Of a stretch of 64,000 nucleotides of DNA, positions 4,635-44,282 are shown piece after piece. Source of the stretch: Octopus vulgaris (taxonomy: Eukaryota); the NCBI GenBank assembly GCA_951406725.2, contig OX597826.1:2046001-2110000 (forward strand). The letters run 5' to 3'. A program made the translations under genes and the position numbers. The notes under the pieces are model-generated. The model searched no databases and had not been told where the DNA came from. It worked only from the letters and a program-made list of their open reading frames with translations. How positions within the stretch are numbered: position 1 is the stretch's first letter; each line of letters starts with the position of its first letter.

Positions 4635-4853
4635 AAGGGCGGCGAACTGGCAGAATCGTTAGCACGCCGGGCGAAATGCATAGCAATATTTCGTCTGCCT
4701 TTAATGTTCTGAGTTCAAATTCCACCGAGGTCAACTTTGCCTTTCATTCTTTTGAGGTCGATAAATTACATACCAGTTGCGTACTGGTGTCGATCTAATC
4801 GACTGGCTCCCACCACAAAATTTCGGGCCTTGTGCCTAGAGTAGAAAAGAATA
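4635..4853 (+). mobile_element. tRNA-derived SINE, family B, short-tail form
   Basis: Head GGCGGCGAACTGGCAGAATCGTTAGCACGCC, B box GAGTTCAAATTCC and core GCCTTTCATTCTTTTGAGGTCGATAAA; more than 10 homologous copies in the window. Confidence 0.9.
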
Positions 4854-5826
4854 TTCAATAATGTATATATCATGTAACTCATTTCTTAAATATAAACTCA
4901 TACATTTGTACAAATGTAAGCACTGGAACATGCCTTTCTTACTATTGTATCGTTGATGAGGTTCATAGATTAATTGACGGTCGTTTTTCAATGAATTAAT
5001 GTTCTGATGTTTGATGCTGTACTTCAGTAATGTGATTGAGGCTTACCTTTATCTAGATTAAATAAATTTGATTAAAGTACACAGTGAGTTTCAGTGGCGT
5101 TAAAAAATTTGAACGTTCTTTCGATATAAGAAAGGATCATCCATGTATCTTAAACGAACTGCGGATTAAATTGGCTTTTCTCGAGATTAGTATTCAAACT
5201 GGAGAAGAAAATAACAAACCACTTCAATATCTCTGCCAAGAAAATATTAAGAGAAAATCAAAACGAAGCAACGTTATGGCTTCATCCGATGAGAGAACTC
5301 CCGCTTAACCGGCAAGGCTTTCGCTGTAGAGACACCAACGGGCTTTAAAAGTGCATGATACATGACGACGACGGCGAGTCTTCGAATATTCCCAGGAAAT
5401 GTTTGATATTATTGATGATAATGGTGCTTGAATAGACATCTCCTTCTCTTGTTGGCAAATTTCATTATCAGTCTACAAATGAAGCATTCATGGGCAAAAT
5501 ATTTTAAAGTCTTCACGATATTACATAATTGAATTGTACTGCTATGACAACCGATATTCGTATACTTCTAGTATGATTGTAATACCTGATAAAATCTCAC
5601 CTGTGATTAGGTTTGCCACATCAAGACTGATGCTGTGGTAGGATATGATAAGCTTTTTCCCGAATTTGCTTTATGATGTCTGATGAAATTTTCGTACATG
5701 AAGGATTTCTGCCTATGATGTGAAGAAGTAAAACAAACGTCTCAGCTAATGGACACAGAATCTCTATCACTGGTGAGAGAACTTAGAATGACTGAGGTTT
5801 AATTATGCCTGGGAAGGACAGCATAT

Positions 5827-11938: not shown

Positions 11939-12587
11939 AGCTGTGTGGTAAGTAGCTTGCTTAGCAACCACATGGTTCCGGGTTCAGTCCCACTGCTTGG
12001 CAACTTGGGCAAGTGTCTTCTTATTTCTTTATTGCCCACAGGGGGCTAAACACAGAAGGGACAAACAAGGATAGACAAACGGATTAAGTTGATTACATCG
12101 ACTCCAGGGCGTAACTGGTACTTAATTTATCGACCCCGAAAGGATGAAAGGCAAAGTCGATCTCGGCGGTATTTGAACTCAGAACGTTACGGCAGACGAA
12201 ATAAAGTTACGCATTTCGCTCGGCGTGCTAACGTTCCTGCCAGCTCGCCTTGGGCAAGTGTCTTCTACTATATCCTCGTGCCGACCAAAGCCTTGTGAGT
12301 GGATTTGGTAGACGGAAACTGAAAGAAGCCCACCGCATATATATATATATATATGTATATATATGTGCGTGTGCGTGCGTGTGTGTGTGTGTATGAATTT
12401 TTGTGTGTCTTTATTCCCTCATCATCGCTTGACAATCGATGTTGGTGTTTTTACGTCCCCGTAACTTAGCGCTTCGGCAAAAGGGAACGATAGGATAAGT
12501 ACTAGGCTTATAAAGAATAAGTTTTGTTCGACTAAAGGTGGTGCTCCAGCATAGCCGCAGTCAAATGACTGAAACGAGTAAAAGAAT
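11939..12587 (+). mobile_element. SINE family A interrupted by a nested family B insertion
   Basis: Family A sequence resumes in register after the insert; CTTGGGCAAGTGTCTTCT is duplicated at 12004-12021 and 12249-12266. Confidence 0.92.
12022..12248 (-). mobile_element. SINE family B, long-tail form, with 18-bp TSD
   Basis: Family B head and core, then tail TTTGTCTATCCTTGTTTGTCCCTTCT...GGGCAATAAAGAAATA, flanked by the 18-bp duplication. Confidence 0.92.
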
Positions 12588-25030: not shown

Positions 25031-25857
25031 AAGGCGGCCGGCTGGCAGAACCGTTAGCACGCCGGGCGAAATGCTTAGCGTATTTTGTCTGCCGTTATGT
25101 TCTGAGTCCAAATTCCGCCGAGGTCGACTTTGCCTTTCATCCTTTCGGGGTCGATAAATTAAGTACCAGTTACGCACCAGTGTCGATGTAATCGACTTAA
25201 TCCCTTTGTTTGTCCCTTCTATGTTTATCCCCTTGTGTGCAATAAAGAAATAAGAAAGTTAGCACGCCGGGCGAAATGCTTAGCGATATTTCGTCTGCCG
25301 CTACGTTCTGAGTTCAAATTCCGCCGAGGCGGACTTTGCCTTTCATCCTTTTTGGGTCGACTAAATAACTACCAGTTACGCTCTGGGGTCGATATAATCG
25401 ACTTAATCCATTTGTCTGTCATTGTTTGTCATATCTGTGTTAAGCTCCTTGTGGGTAGTAAAGAAATAGGTATTTCGTCTGCCGTAACGTCTGAGTTCAA
25501 ATTCTGCCGAGGTTGACTATGCCTTTCATCCTTTCGGAGTCAATAAATTAAGTACCAGTTACGCACTAGGGTCATGTAATCGATTTAATCCTTTTCTCTG
25601 TCCTTGTTTGTCGCCCTCTATGTTTAGCCCCTTGTGGGCAATAAAGAAATAAGAAACGTTGAGCACGCCGGGCGAAACGCTTAACGGCATTTCATATGTG
25701 TTTATGTTCTGAGTTCAAATTCTGCCGAGATTGACTTTGTCTTTCATTCTTTCTGGGTATATGACATACGTACCAGTTGAATACTGGGGTCGATATAATC
25801 GAGTTATCTCATCCCGCTGAACTTTCTGGTTTTGTGTCAAAATTTGAAGCCAATATT
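25031..25857 (+). mobile_element. Head-to-tail array of four family B SINE units (three long-tail, one terminal short-tail)
   Basis: Tails ending GAAATA at 25252, 25468 and 25651 are each followed by a 5'-truncated B head. Confidence 0.92.
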
Positions 25858-31134: not shown

Positions 31135-31525
31135 CGGCAGTGAGCTAGCAGTAACTTTACAGTGCCGGACAAAATGCTTAGCGGTATTTCATCTGTCTTT
31201 ACGTTCTGAGTTCAAATTCCACCGAGGTCGACTTTGCCTTTCATCCTTTCGGGGTCGATTAAATAAGTACCAGTTACGCACTGGGGTCGATGTAATCGAC
31301 TTAATCCATTTGTCTGTCCTTGTTTGTCTTCTCTGTGTTCAGGGTAGTAAAGAAATAGGTATTTCATCTGTCTTTACATTCTGAGTTGAAATTCCACCGA
31401 GGTCGACTTTACCTTTCATTATTTCGACGCTGATAAATTGAAGTACCAGTTGCGCATTGGGGGTCGATGTAATCGACTACACACTTCCACCCAATTTCCA
31501 GCCTTGGGATTATGTTAGATATTAT
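31135..31525 (+). mobile_element. Long-tail family B unit (31203-31357) inserted in register into an older B copy
   Basis: GGTATTTCATCTGTCTTTAC is duplicated at 31183-31202 and 31358-31377. Confidence 0.88.
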
Positions 31526-32373: not shown

Positions 32374-32585
32374 AAAGGCGGCAAGCTGGCAGAATCGGTA
32401 GCACGCCTTACAAGATGCTCAGGGGCATTTCGTCCGTCTTTATGTTCTGAGATCGTATACCGCCGAAGTCGACTTTACCTTTCATTCTTTCGGGGTCAAT
32501 AAAATGAAATATTAGCATCGATGTAATTGGCTAACACCCTCTCTCAAATTTTCAGGCCTTGCGCCTATATTAGAAAGGATTATTA
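32374..32585 (+). mobile_element. SINE family B, short-tail form
   Basis: Homologous to 4635-4853. Confidence 0.85.
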
Positions 32586-32605
32586 AATATTTGTTTATGA
32601 TTGTT

Positions 32606-33261: not shown

Positions 33262-33663
33262 TTTTGGAAGAAAGGCAGTATGTTTGGGGATGGGCTAAGT
33301 CGATTAAACCAACCCTATTTTTCAACTGGTACTTATTTTATCGACTCCAAAGGGATGAAAGGCAAAGTCGACCCTGGCACAGTTTGAACTCAGAATGTAA
33401 AGCATTTTGCAAGGCATGCTAACGGTTCTTATTTCTTTATTGCCCAACAAGGGGCCAAACATAGAGGGGACGAAGAAGGACAGACAAAGGGATTAAGTCG
33501 ATTACATCGGCCCCAGTGTGTAACTGGTACTTAATTTATCGACCCCGAAAGAATGAAAGGCAAAGTCGACCTCGGCGGAATTTGAACTCAGAACTTAACG
33601 GCAGACGAAATACGGCTACGCGTTTCCCCCGGCGTGCAAACGTTTCTGTCAGATCGCCGCCTT
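33262..33663 (-). mobile_element. Long-tail family B unit (33430-33663) joined to an older B copy (33262-33429)
   Basis: Minus-strand junction GGGCAATAAAGAAATA|AGAACCGTTAGCATGCC. Confidence 0.88.
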
Positions 33664-38144: not shown

Positions 38145-38183
38145 AGGCGCAGGAGTGGCTGTGTGGTAAGTAGCTTGCTAACC
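38145..38183 (+). mobile_element. 5' part (A box) of the family A SINE split by the LINE
   Basis: AGGCGCAGGAGTGGCTGTGTGGTAAGTAGCTTGCTAACC. Confidence 0.95.
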
Positions 38184-38572
38184 TCACTGACAGAAGAGTG
38201 ACTTTGCTTACCGTACTACGGTTTGGACGCGTTTTCTTCCCGGTAAGAATTTTGCTGTGTTGTTAATTGTTGAATTCCTACTACTGAAAATTTGCCATTA
38301 AACGTTGCCGAACTGTCTTGTTCTCCGGTTTTACCGGGAAGTAATTGAATAATTTCTTACCGTTGAACTGTTAGCCACTGTGGCTTTTTATTTACGTGAC
38401 TATACATAGTCCTGCCAGACTATTTTCGTGCCCCTCCCCCGAATGGGGGTGGGAATTGGAATTTTTGAACTACTTTTTTGAACTACTTTGGAAGAAAAAC
38501 TTTCTATAGGTTTCCCAGTTTTGTGGGAAACCAATACTCGTAATTTTTGTGTTGTCTAATTTCAACAGAATA

Positions 38573-39984
38573 ATGTCTGTTGAAATTATTCACGAAAGTA
38601 GTGCTCTTGAGGAGAGCAATGTTAAAAAATTTTCTGAGGTAGCCGCAGTGGCTACCGAGAAAATTGACATCGATGTCAACCAGCTCGTCGAGCTATTTAA
38701 AAAAATGCAAGAAAAGGGTGGTGATGTTAAAATATCACCCTCCGCCAGTATCGTGGAGACCGAGAAGCGGACCGTAGTGTTTAAAACTTTCTGTCCACAA
38801 AGCAGAAGGTTCAAACACTTTGAAAAAAGTACCATCGAGAAATGCCTGTCCCCGATTTGGAAGGACATCGTGTACGTCGCCAGGGGACGGGCATATGGCA
38901 CAGTGGATGTCCGCTTCTCGGGGAAAGAAATGGCCCGAGGGCATTCTGTAAACCCCCTAAAAACCAAGGAGGTGGTACTTTTTCCAAGCTATAGGGGACG
39001 CAGGACGTCCCGGGTCAGGATTGTAGAAGCCCCGCCGGAAGTTGATCCGGTAGAGGTAGTGGCCGCCCTATTATATAAAAGGGCGGACAAAATAAAAATA
39101 CTAGAAGTAACATGCTCTACCCCTCGATTTTGGCTCGGGCGTAACATTAATATATTAATTCAAGGAACAGCGGAGGACCTACAGCTCCTTCCTGAGAGGG
39201 TGCTCGTGGGCGAGAACGTAGCCCTCAGGGTACAGGTCGAAGGCCGAAAACCCACCTGTTACGCCTGCGGCGAAAAGGGCCACATTCGTGTAGACTGTCC
39301 AGACAAGCAAAAGAAACCGCAGACACCAGGCCCCTCAGATAATAAAAAAAGTCCCTACCCTTGCAAACACACCTAACCCTACAAAAAAAAAACACAAAAA
39401 ATCCCACTCCTGCTGTTACGGTGCCAACCCCAAAACAGACTGAAGAAAAAACCCAGCCCTCGCACTCACAAACCCCTACACTATTAAAACCTCCCACCCC
39501 CCTAAAAACTGCGGCGCCTACCGAACAAACTATTGCTACCCCAGACGATACCATGGAGGTATCAGAGGGGGGATTTACACCAGTTCGTAAAAGAATTCGT
39601 GCAGCATCCCCGTCCACATCCCCTACAAAAAATAATAAAAACAAAGACACACCACAGACACGGAAAAAAAAATCCCGCTCAACTGGCCCAGAAAAAGAAG
39701 ACAAAAAAGAAAATGAACTCATATTAATTGAATTCGACGCACAAGACAAATACATAAACGATATTGTGGTTCAGCATCAGTCAGCAAGACTGTACAACAA
39801 ATACAAAGATCGAAATAGACACGCGTGGATTGCGGAAACAACGTTCAAACAATTAAAAGACAGACACCCAAACGCCATCCGGCATGTCGCGAACTTTCCG
39901 GACTATCTGAAGAAAGAGGAGAAAGAAGGGGCCCACAAACGTGTGGTGAGGTCGGCCCCCACCTCTCCAACGAAATGTAAGTAG
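38573..39984 (+). pseudogene. LINE ORF1 (gag-like nucleic-acid-binding protein), one -1 frameshift near 39344-39373
   Basis: ATG at 38573, zinc knuckle CYACGEKGHIRVDC, then a Pro/Thr/Lys-rich continuation in the overlapping frame (39361-39984) ending 17 nt before ORF2. Confidence 0.85.
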
Positions 39985-40001
39985 AACTTTTACTTTTTGT
40001 A

Positions 40002-43000
40002 ATGGCTTCGCTTAACCTTGGTTGTTTAAATGTGCGTGGTCTGAGTTCGAAGTGGAAGCAGGCTTGTTTCCTCGACGACCTCAGATCACATGATATACAT
40101 GTGATGGTTGCTACAGAGACCAAGCTGGACAGCCTACAAACCTTCTCGCCTCTCCTGAATGGCTACGAGAAAATCATGTCTCCTGGCCAGACCGGAGGGC
40201 GAGGGGGCGTAGTGGTACTGATCCGTAAAGACTTGGCTCTACAGACAAGTACAGTCTATGTAGACCCAGAAGGTGGGCTGGTCGTCCTTGATGTGACATA
40301 CAGCAGTAAGGCCTTCAGGTTGATCGGACTATATGCACCTTGTGCTAGAGGTTTCCAAACTGATTTTTATCGGCGCCTAGAGGGCTTTCTCGTGACGTCG
40401 AAGACTTTAGTGATATTAGGGGACTTTAATGCTATCGTTGACGTACACATCGATAGCGTTGGCTCGATCTATAGGAAAGTGAACTCACGTCTCGTGGATC
40501 TGCTTAAGCGGTTTCAGCTAGTAGATCGTTACAGACTTGACCATCCGAACGTCCCAGAGTGGACCTGGATGAGTGGCGACGGAAGGTTCAAGTCTTATCT
40601 AGACAGGATAGTGATAAGAACTAGAGATAAGTCTAGTTTTAGTTGTCCACAGCTCGTCCAGGTGCCCTATACTGACCATAGAATGGTCACGTGTAGACTG
40701 GACATAGATAGCACACTTAAGATAGGAACCGGCTACTGGAAGCTGAACAAGTCTATTTTGACACGCGAGGCATACCGTAGCCGGATTAAGGTGTTAGTGC
40801 AGAGGGCGTTAACCGGAGCCGTGGTTAATAACCGGTGGTGGTTCACCCTCAAAAGAGCCATTCGATTCGAGTCCATTAGATTTAGTAAACAACTAAGACT
40901 AGATAGGGCTAGAATAGAAGGGCAACTAGTTAAGAACTTAGAGGAGGCGTTGAGGTTGGGCTCTGCATCTCACATTTTAGCGGCGAGAACGGCATTAGAC
41001 CGTCACCTCAAAACCAAACATGAGGGATGTAGAATCCGGGCTAAAGTACGAGCATTGGGCCGTGAGGGAATTAATGTTGCCGGATGGGCCCGTACGATAG
41101 AAACACAGCGTGGAAACGATGCCACAATTGGGTCTCTTGTTGATGAAAACGGATGCACGATCAAGAAGCGGGACGAGATGTGTGAGGCACTTCACAAGCA
41201 CTTCGCCGAGTTGTTCGGGAGGTGCGGGACGCTGGATCATGGTGAGGCCCTTAGGGACTTCCTGTCTGGTGGCCCGCGCCTCTCGACACGAGAGGCTGAG
41301 TGCTGTGAAGGGCCAATCACAGCCGAGGAAGTAATCGAAGTGTTGGGCAAGTGCCCCGGGGAGAAGTCGCCGGGTCTCGATGGTCTGCCCTATGAATTTT
41401 ATAGAAGTATGCCAGACTTGTTCGGGCACCTGCTGGCTAGCGTCTACGCCAACTGGCAGCAGAATGGGAGAATTCCCAAGTCTGCGAGCCGGGGGGCGGT
41501 GACGTTGATCAGGAAGGACCCGAACAAGGGGGACGAGATAGGGAACTTCAGGCCCATAACTCTGTTAAACACAGAGTTAAAGATTCTGGCCAAGGTGCTA
41601 GCAAAAAGGTTGGCGCGGGTCGTGGACAAACTTGTCGGGGAAGCGCAAACGTGCGCTATCCCCGGCAGAACGATCCACGACAATCCCCACCTTATACGCT
41701 ACTCCTTAGAGAGGGTGGGGAAGCTTTCTGGCGCAGGGGGAGCACTGGTACATTTAGACCAGTCCAAAACATTTGATAGGGTCGACCATCGGTACCTGGC
41801 GGCGGTCCTCGGAGAGGCTGGCCTAGGCCCGACCTTTCGAGGTTGGATCGCTGCTTTGTATAGCGACATCGAGTCTGTAGTCAAAGTGAACGGTTCCTTT
41901 TCGAAGCCGTTCAGGATCGAGCGTTCAGTTCGTCAAGAGTGCCCCCTGTCCTCGCTCCTATACGTATTGGCTCTTGAGCCTTTGCTGCGGGAGTTGGAGG
42001 CACTAGGGGCGCGCCGCATGATCTATGGTGTGGAAGAGGAGCTACGGCGTATGCGGATGACACCTCCATCATCGTGGCAGACGAAGGCCAGCTTCCAGTG
42101 GTGGAAGAGGCCATCAAAAGCTACGAGGCGGTGGCAGGAGCAAAGGTTAACAAGGACAAGTCGGTCGGTTTGCAACTCGGCACCTGGAGGGGCAAGCCGA
42201 TGCCGTCCAATAACGTCGTAGGGCGTTGGACGGAAGGTCCTGTTAAGCTGCTCGGAGTCTGGTTCGGGCCAGACCTCCAGATTGAGAAAAATTGGAGTGA
42301 GGTGGCCAACAAGGTGACCGCTCTAACCCAGACCTGGTCTGGGCGGGCGTTATCCCTGCTAGGGAAGGCGGAGGTGGTGCAGATGTTTATAGCATCAGTA
42401 ATCACCTACCGTCTGACCGTGGTGCCTTGCCCCGATTTGTGGCTGAACAAGTTGGAGAGAATCCTTTTCCGATTTTTGTGGAAAGGAGGAAGGCCACTTG
42501 TAAAGCGCTCTGTCTGCTGCCAGAAACCGCTAAAGGGTGGGCTAGGGATGCCTTGGCTGAGGATGCGAAAACTCGCGTTAAGGTTGAGGCACCTCTGGCT
42601 TTACCTGGATGGAGAGCAGGTGTGGCCACCGCACGTCCTGTTCTACCTTCCCCAGTTAACATCCCTAACGGACATCGGTGCATGGATCAAGCGGAGACCT
42701 AAACTGAGTGAATGGCATTTGGAGTGCCGTCAGGCGCTCCAGCTACTATCTCGGGTGGGCAACGCCGGCAACAGGAGTTCCACCACGGATTTCTATAGCG
42801 GGTTAGTGGAGATTAAGTCCGAAGACGCCTTGGAGGAGACCCTGGGCTACGATGAAAATCAGTTGGTCAACCTGTTCCGGAGGACGTTCGGGCCGGGGTA
42901 TCTGGATAATTACCAGAAATCCCTGGCCTGGCAGTGTTTCCGTGCGGCTTTACCTGTTCGCGACAAGCTGTCAAGGCACGGTAGTGTCGTCTCGCCGACA

Positions 43001-43402
43001 TGCCCGCGATGTGAGCAGGATAGGGAGACCGTCTTGCACGCATTCGTGGAGTGTCCGGAGTTATCGGGACTGATAGCTTTTGTTGAACAACTGTTGTCAG
43101 TGATGGGAAGAGTACAGCTATCAGCTGAGTCTATCATCGAGACTGTGCCGCCCCCTTTCCTTAACAGGGAAAGAAAGGCTTGTTTTTTCTGTGTAGTAGC
43201 CATACTGAAAGAAACAGTATGGAAGACGCGTACGAAAGGTATAGTGACAGGGACCTTTGTCTCCGGCCAGGGGTTGATTAACTTTTTTAGTTACCACCTC
43301 AGTAGCAAAATCAGGCTGGAGAAGAGGTGTCTGTCACGAGATATGTTTGCGAAAAGATGGAAGCCTGTGGCATACAAGATGGGTATGTTTGGCACCAGGT
43401 AA
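40002..43402 (+). pseudogene. LINE ORF2: AP endonuclease + reverse transcriptase + CCHC, one -1 frameshift near 42006-42009
   Basis: APE motifs NVRGL, YAP, GDFN, LDR and TDH; GYWKLN; RT motifs KSPGLDG, NFRPITLLN, DQSKTFDRV and QECPLS; AYADD at 42047-42061 in the second frame; C-terminal CPRC...HAFVEC. Confidence 0.95.
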
Positions 43403-43630
43403 GTGTGACCGGATCAGAAAGTAAAGGTTCTACCCGGATGGCTGGGTGTCCGTCCTTCGACATGATCATTAATATTTTTAAACATTGCCTTCGTAAAATT
43501 CATTGTTTATAATCTTACCCGTAATTTCATTCGAAAATTGTAACTGTGTTAAGCTACTTCACCCTTTATATTTGTCTGTCCTTGTTTGTCCCCTCTTTGT
43601 AAATGCCTAAATGGCAAATTATATGAAATA

Positions 43631-43773
43631 AAGTAGCTTGCTAACCAACCACATGGTTCTGGGTTCAGTCCCACTGCGTGGCATCTTGGGCAAGTGTCTT
43701 CTGCTATAGCCCCGGGCCGACCAATGCTTTGTGAGTGGATTTGGTAGACGGAAACTGAAAGAAGCCTGTCGTA

Positions 43774-43826
<53 letters not shown>

Positions 43827-44020
43827 CTGTGTTTGTCCCCCTAGCATTGCTTGACAACCGATGCTGGTGTGTTTACGTCCCCGTCACTTAGCGGTTCGGC
43901 AAAAGAGACCGATAGAATAAGCACTGGGCTTACAAAGAATAAATCCCGGGGTCGATTTGCTCGACTAAAGGCGGTGCTCCAGCATGGCCGCAGTCAAATG
44001 ACTGAAACAAGTAAAAGAGT
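43631..44020 (+). mobile_element. 3' part of the family A SINE split by the LINE
   Basis: Continues ACCACATGGTTCTGGGTTCAGTCCC to the GTAAAAGAGT tail. Confidence 0.95.
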
Positions 44021-44282
44021 ATATATATATACATACTTTTCATTTAGAATATATTTGCAGACATACAGACCGATTCCGGCTGGATCATTTCCAATCCTGT
44101 GTTGGCGTTCTATAAGCGACCGAACAGTCTCTAATTGTCCTGGGAAACGTTCTTTATGACTGTATTAGTTTCTCGGACAGTCGGCCTTCTAGGGTCTTCT
44201 TCCTGCTTATGTTATGGTTGATGTGGATTAAAGTTTACTTGTAACGGTTTTAAAACATTAACATTATCAAAGTCTCCGGTCT

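Follow-up and report, generated by a model that had tools for sequence, protein, structure and literature searches.

A SINE of Octopus vulgaris shares its 3′ tail with L1/Tx1-like LINEs, whose enzymes probably copy it

L1-type LINEs and SINEs that share a 3′ tail are described, in the available parts of the literature, in plants and a green alga only, as ZmSINE2 and ZmSINE3 with LINE1-1_ZM and SINEX-3_CR with L1-1_CR (Ohshima 2012, PMC3472496; Ohshima 2013, PMC3747384), and L1 tails account for only three of the 58 LINE-tailed SINEs treated in the accessible text of the former. The one link between a SINE and a Tx1-type LINE that we found, that of crocodilian SINEU with Tx1-Mar, is drawn in the accessible text of Kojima 2015 (PMC4494074) from target preference, age and snRNA-derived heads, and is based on the choice of target. 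The same text describes target-specific Tx1 families, such as Tx1L in Tx1D, Keno in U2, and Kibi and Koshi in microsatellites. Work on bivalve SINEs warns, in its available text, of confusing the true partner of a SINE with a sibling LINE (Martelossi 2024, PMC11481361). A repeat annotation of the octopus from 2026 reports recently active L1-Tx1 families, and the words 'tail' and 'target' are absent from its main text. No published description of a Tx1-tailed or self-targeting SINE in cephalopods was found in the openly accessible literature searched. The wider question is how enzymes of the L1 superfamily chose their RNA before the poly(A)-only mode of mammals.

Here, we analysed a window of 64,000 nucleotides of the O. 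vulgaris genome (assembly GCA_951406725.2, contig OX597826.1, positions 2,046,001 to 2,110,000), together with copies of its repeats from the whole assembly. The window contains a full-length LINE, family F1 (Table 1), which is a non-LTR retrotransposon of the L1 superfamily: it has an ORF1 and an ORF2 with an N-terminal APE endonuclease, a reverse transcriptase (RT) and a C-terminal zinc knuckle. Pfam finds zf-CCHC in ORF1, and Exo_endo_phos, RVT_1 and zf-RVT in ORF2; the closest solved structure to ORF2 is that of human L1 ORF2 (E 2.5e-52; R2, 1e-16). The label Tx1 would apply to F1 by its architecture and target specificity rather than by an RT phylogeny, and protein searches with these LINEs returned no named Tx1 reference protein. 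Like Tx1-type elements, which insert at fixed positions of multicopy sequences, F1 uses one such position, in the SINE A head. AAGTAGCTT comes next at the 3′ end of all 30 copies analysed; beyond it, the 3′ flank is SINE A in 27, another F1 start in two and other DNA in one, and the 5′ ends lie in the SINE A head in 26 copies and behind another tail in four. F1 uses one fixed nucleotide in this head, where it stacks head to tail with related, differently tailed elements (window 38146-43646; loci L001-L030 and L166-L195).

Table 1. Repeat features of the window, with coordinates counted from its first nucleotide.
Feature	Position	Strand	Remarks
Full-length L1/Tx1-like LINE, family F1	38184..43630	+	Pfam domains; ORF1 and ORF2 each over two reading frames; without poly(A)
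SINE A head, 5′ part, interrupted by F1	38146..38183	+	5′ target duplication copy (16 bp) at 38168-38183
SINE A remainder, interrupted by F1	43631..44021	+	3′ duplication copy at 43631-43646
9 nt complementary to positions 1-9 of the F1 target site	43551..43559	+	not found in F3
Proximal tail block of F1	43571..43600	+	29/30 identical to SINE B-long majority; 30/30 in a sister LINE family (L346)
Terminal 4-bp hairpin TGCC-TAAAT-GGCA of F1	43604..43616	+	same register as GCCC-CTTGT-GGGY of B
A-rich terminus of F1, GAAATA end, directly joined to target	43617..43630	+	30/30 copies without poly(A)
Short-tail B copy	4635..4855	+	without block; hairpin with same CTTGT loop
B-long copy in SINE A, antisense, 18-bp duplication	12018..12249	-	
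B array, head to tail: three B-long tails at the two fixed B-head sites; last unit short-tailed	25031..25806	+	
B-long copy, hairpin deleted, joined at GGTATTTC site to short-tail B	31136..31478	+	
Short-tail B copy	32374..32590	+	without block; hairpin present
B-long copy joined at AGAA site to short-tail B	33296..33663	-	

The 5′ target duplication of full-length F1 copies agrees, in its last bases, with the version that the element itself carries and not with the local target (window 38168-38183; pairs L005/L172 and L028/L167), which suggests that the F1 RNA begins with target-like sequence. With read-through, the stretch at 43551-43559 would close, in a computed fold, a 10-bp helix around the whole tail; shorter motifs of this kind are visible in the A-site relatives L183 and L193, and not in F3. 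Complementarity between UTR and target was rejected as a general rule, with 9 nt in F1 versus at most 7 nt in 14 other loci. The stop region of F1 ORF2 (43394-43403) is a perfect 5′ splice-site consensus and a candidate U1-binding site upstream of the AATAAA-type end, which may be due to chance. SINE A ends (43990-44021) in a short hairpin too, with a 5-bp stem and a 4-nt loop, followed by an A-rich terminus.

The first-pass annotation had proposed that the 3′ tail of this LINE is shared with the long-tailed form of a second SINE (B-long), with a 26-nt block at 43571-43596, a small hairpin and a GAAATA end; all three are in the window sequence as claimed, the hairpin at 43604-43616 and GAAATA at 43625-43630. 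The six B tails named as matching the block agree with it at 24, 17, 22, 21, 24 and 24 of 26 ungapped positions; 7 nt of the block are deleted in the copy near 25200, and the hairpin is missing from the one near 31308. When the F1 3′ UTR was searched against the window, the best five matches other than itself were all B-long tails (E 2e-6 to 3e-4). The 26-nt block is present in 30 of 30 fetched F1 copies (28 exact, two with one mismatch), and older sister LINE families also carry it. Compared with F1, the majority B-long tail is identical at 29 of 30 proximal positions and at 21 of 34 distal ones. Across 80 evenly spaced 10-kb stretches (800 kb) of the genome searched (2.8 Gb, 227 contigs), with up to four mismatches allowed, the block gave 48 matches, 45 with a B core upstream and the other three being truncated or edge B copies; this density corresponds to about 170,000 B-long copies genome-wide. 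Eleven controls in the same 800 kb, the reversed block and ten shuffles, gave none. The match between the tails of F1 and B-long is not due to chance, and the common sequence supports the proposal that B captured a tail of L1/Tx1 type, the clade being named by architecture and target.

Is the hairpin a general property of these LINEs? A zf-RVT search, in which 150 of 25,801 candidates were scored, provided together with follow-ups 110 LINE 3′ ends in 26 clusters. Nearly all of the 110 have a TGTCC-rich tract, a short hairpin and a AATAAAGAAAT-type terminus that runs straight onto the target without poly(A). Tails were selected on their terminus and tract motifs, irrespective of any hairpin, and six of the 26 representatives (two wrongly picked tails and four near-duplicates) were dropped before hairpins were counted. 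A 4-bp stem with a loop of 4-6 nt, ending 0-2 nt before the terminus, was found in 17 of the 20 remaining L1/Tx1-like representatives, in 13 distinct stems, against a background of 12% per position; across 2000 shuffles the count averaged 4.2, peaked at 10 and never reached 17. Covariation in the hairpin, which had been put forward as a check, was found: in a MAFFT alignment, 81% of the cells of the named helix are paired, with 17 double-sided changes, counts which are not independent events because the LINE families are related, and the covariation score is 0.69 versus 0.27 when shuffled and at most 0.29 when slid. This covariation suggests that the hairpin and the terminal hexamer may act as a recognition signal. 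AATAAA is also a canonical polyadenylation signal, so the tail module could serve 3′-end processing instead of recognition by the RT.

The targets of these families are diverse. At L160 (1096-1259), and in this one copy only, a full-length U1 snRNA gene copy (Rfam, 125 bits) starts at its first base immediately after a Tx1-like tail. Other families end in ATT, ATCT or CT microsatellites (L139, L158, L163, L091, L087; L282, L269; L137), so that the LINE radiation has many targets under one tail module. Several families with a GAT stem (L149, L151, L155, L156, L162, L140 and L072) have similar downstream sequence, which looks like one further target repeat. At L044 (1000-5160), a cluster of old, 5′-truncated Tx1-like 3′ ends is repeated with its flanking DNA and bears two inserted B-long copies.

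Of 98 B cores, 48 (about half) carry a short tail, which lacks the block and mostly keeps a hairpin whose CTTGT loop is that of the long tail and whose stem is inverted. The two short-tail copies of the window, at 4635 and 32374, had been thought to lack the whole module; the block is indeed absent, but their hairpins (GGGC-CTTGT-GCCT and AGGC-CTTGC-GCCT) are present, and the contrast between long and short tails is thus valid for the block only. Motifs resembling the A and B boxes of a tRNA-related SINE head were seen by eye only, and ARAGORN and Rfam gave no tRNA match. The SINEs of the window presumably resemble the published octopus SINEs OK, OR1 and OR2. These names occur in the available text of PMC4758252 and PMC4824008.

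Long-tail B inserts into the head of B itself. The exact B tail is followed by GGTATTT, the site in B's own head, 31,159 times in the genome. In the sample, another B unit comes after 19 of 45 long-tail copies, and a B site after none of 22 short-tail ones; nine of the 19 downstream units are long-tailed and, by our reading, most of the remaining ten have a short tail or one of another kind. Thirty of 63 matches to B within B were read, and in 14 of them (two rows being one locus) an inserted B head begins exactly 16 nt into the site; the same sequence continues after the tail in 12 of the 14, which identifies these as true insertions with a 16-bp duplication. Most array junctions are without a duplicated head, which suggests that the cDNA may join a homologous upstream head. 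In unique DNA, the target site duplications (TSDs) of solitary B-long copies begin with GGTAT, GATAT or TATAT, and this loose pattern fits 31 of 37 junctions. On contig C1 of genome G000 (4676258-4677961), ten B units with a spacing of about 185 bp form a satellite-like array.

A search for LINEs at the B site gave 1,098 matches, and in five of the first 100 a recurring foreign tail was found there, that of family F3. Three copies were fetched: two have ORF2 homology and the third has the same UTR. Their tails agree with that of B at 31, 31 and 29 of 34 distal positions and at only 15-16 of 30 positions of the proximal block, and F3 ends in GAAATT versus GAAATA in B. A pattern built on the F3 hairpin had 91 matches, of which, by hand count, 74 are followed by the B site, three by similar sequence and 14 by other DNA, three F3 loci having been read, two of which are among the 91. 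The three F3 copies are 87-89% alike, which fits the age of B-long (mean divergence from the majority sequence 6.2%, n=45) if they descended in parallel from one source. F3 has the same B-head insertion site as B and, in three copies, a similar divergence. The most likely carrier of B would accordingly seem to be F3 and its kin, a sister family inserting into B's own head.

Other candidates were considered. F2, which has the exact B hairpin and 27 of 34 distal positions, was set aside, as its 3′ junctions are varied and none among 17 cluster loci starts with GGTAT. At L375 (1440-1575), an F2-type LINE end abuts the final 70 nt of a B-long copy, by insertion into B or by a template jump, and jumps of this kind could make hybrid tails. 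No LINE with ORF homology was present among 30 of 289 matches to the whole B tail that were read. With a second pattern all nine matches were read, eight having LINE-type or other flanks with a different hairpin and one being a B copy; with a third, the 30 read of 1,443 are B variants, one of them directly behind an F2-type LINE end. Other patterns for a LINE at B's sites gave 20 matches, all read, without ORF homology, none among 30 read of 305, and six loci that are all B. Site searches found no LINE at B's second site (AGAAACG).

The B tail is a mosaic, with a proximal half of the F1 lineage (29-30 of 30 positions) and a distal half like F3 (31 of 34), and no single family matches both halves. 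A tree of 172 alignment columns groups F3 with F2 and families with a GCCC-type hairpin (96/95), and F1 with the block-bearing families (92/93). Topology tests rejected a clade of F1 and F3 (p-AU 0.005) and one of the block lineage and F3 (0.02), both tested clades having been named after the first tree was seen and the second tree being without four rows (two wrong tails and two long branches). Since the tree separates the two lineages, the halves of the B tail match two distinct lineages, overlapping at TCT(A/G)TGT. The mosaic may have originated either by a tail swap at this common motif or in an unsampled family that has both halves, which is possible because the deepest rows of the LINE tree have the GCCC-type hairpin as well.

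Taken together, our results lead us to propose, with a probability of roughly two in three, that B-long, whose 58-nt tail matches L1/Tx1-like 3′ ends, is copied by the enzymes of these LINEs via the predicted hairpin, most likely by those of F3 and its kin and not by those of F1. It is the common tail sequence and hairpin that make such copying likely. The ORF2 protein would bind the terminal RNA hairpin and start reverse transcription at GAAAT, the F3 endonuclease would set the preference of B for GGTAT, and repeated insertion into older B heads would build the 184-bp arrays. A further step can be put forward tentatively: the hairpin could be an address label that picks a site-specific Tx1-like enzyme, and B, by swapping only its distal half, may have acquired an enzyme that cuts its own head, giving a self-feeding homing loop with over 30,000 head-to-tail junctions.

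The proposal that F1 itself is the partner of B was not supported, and we consider it highly improbable, although several features agree: the proximal block (29 of 30), the register of the hairpin, the GAAATA end and a TSD of about 16 bp. The expected TSD length of 16-20 bp for both elements was roughly right: F1 has 16 bp in the window copy and in one truncated copy and, at 19 other full-length loci, 16-20 bp in the four cases that were clean, and solitary full-head B-long copies, in 11 of 15 of which a TSD was found (7-20 bp), mostly have 14-16 bp (eight of the 11). The lengths thus agree, but insertion target and age do not. The exact B tail is followed by the F1 site 0 and 8 times, for two possible junctions, against the 31,159 occurrences at B's own site, and we estimate that eight is about the number expected for an arbitrary 7-mer. 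The exact F1 tail occurs 90 times in the genome, and F1 copies are 97.6-99.1% identical to the window copy, so that some 90 copies at about 1% divergence, a young family, stand against some 170,000 B-long copies at 6%. The distal tail matches at only 21 of 34 positions, and an older sister family matches the block better (30 of 30). F1 is therefore probably not the partner of B, and the first-pass interpretation, partly supported, was right in kind and wrong in partner. That the LINEs took the block from the abundant SINE seems equally improbable. B is far commoner and these LINE lineages insert into SINEs, B included; yet the block and hairpin extend across numerous LINE families with only about 52-62% identity to F1 at the ORF2 end, the GCCC-type hairpin reaches the deepest rows, B-long is young and the block is absent from short-tail B. 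The data suggest that the block in LINE lineages is older than any B-long copy, and the spread of the module over such divergent LINEs, with B-long being young, indicates transfer from LINE to SINE. A coincidence within a low-complexity, TGTC-rich tract has a negligible probability: SINE A does have a weaker TGTC-rich look-alike (22/27, E 0.14), but the block is in every F1 copy fetched, all 48 matches in 800 kb are B tails with none in the 11 controls, and both elements carry the match at their 3′ end, where it keeps the register of the hairpin and the terminus.

A more serious alternative, which we nevertheless regard as unlikely, is that targeting is set in cis. Read-through B RNAs would carry downstream GGUAUUU or AGAAACG and pair with matching nicks, several loose Tx1-like enzymes would copy them, and F3 would be one more resident of the site. 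Variants of the B tail are indeed linked to targets: among sampled tails, the GGGT-stem variant is followed by GGTA in 19 of 32 and the GGGC-stem variant, whose stem end is like that of F3, in none of seven, and in the window AGAA comes after each of the four C-type tails and GGTA after both of the T-type ones. This difference points to pairing of the read-through RNA with the target or to a second enzyme, and the link fits targeting set by the RNA as well as targeting set by the enzyme. The hairpin plus AATAAAGAAAT is common to many LINE families, and the F1 UTR would be able to pair with read-through target sequence. Against pairing in cis, F3, with its own tail, is still at the B site in 74 of 91 matches, and the TSDs of solitary B copies in unique DNA start with GGTAT, GATAT or TATAT, as a preference of the endonuclease predicts. 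Targeting in cis and targeting by the F3 enzyme can both hold.

The system comprises a minimum of 20 related LINE families that lack poly(A) and have one small hairpin in 13 stem versions, with the SINE A head, the SINE B head, microsatellites and a U1 gene as targets. One hairpin module with different targets implies that RNA recognition and target choice are separable by an exchange of parts. The system further provides a candidate carrier for a SINE present in about 170,000 copies, and a way in which SINE insertion could lead to tandem arrays.

Judged from sequence, B and its LINEs would work like a stringent SINE-LINE pair combined with site specificity of the Tx1 type. As in the plant and algal pairs, an L1-superfamily LINE and a SINE share a 3′ end of about 50 nt, with a hairpin that has compensatory changes and a variable stem (PMC3472496, PMC3747384, available text); those pairs end in poly(A) according to the accessible part of PMC3472496, whereas the present one is animal, without poly(A), and inserts site-specifically. 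The short 3′ stem-loop common to LINE and SINE is also known from UnaL2/UnaSINE and from ZfL2, which provide the model for the recognition proposed here; as described in the accessible portions of PMC4176376 and PMC1636434, these belong to the L2 clade, end in short tandem repeats and have had recognition established by experiment, whereas in the octopus it is inferred only. The exchange of LINE-derived tails on one body, and the tandem arrays, recall the bivalve SINEs, whose partners are CR1, CR1-Zenon, L2 and Nimb, the term Tx1 being absent from the main text of that study (Martelossi 2024, PMC11481361). Like Tx1L, Keno, Kibi and Koshi, the octopus elements are APE-endonuclease LINEs at fixed sites in multicopy sequences; no SINE head is named as the target of a Tx1 family in the available text of PMC4494074, and here F1 inserts into SINE A and F3 into SINE B. 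As with SINEU and Tx1-Mar, a SINE is tied to Tx1-type LINEs by a target inside another repeat and by matching age, with different families and different sites. The 3′ half of SINEU-1 has no matching LINE and its target is a Mariner DNA transposon, in the text available (PMC4494074), whereas the octopus SINE and LINEs have a tail in common, the hairpin of this tail covaries, and insertion is into the head of the SINE itself.
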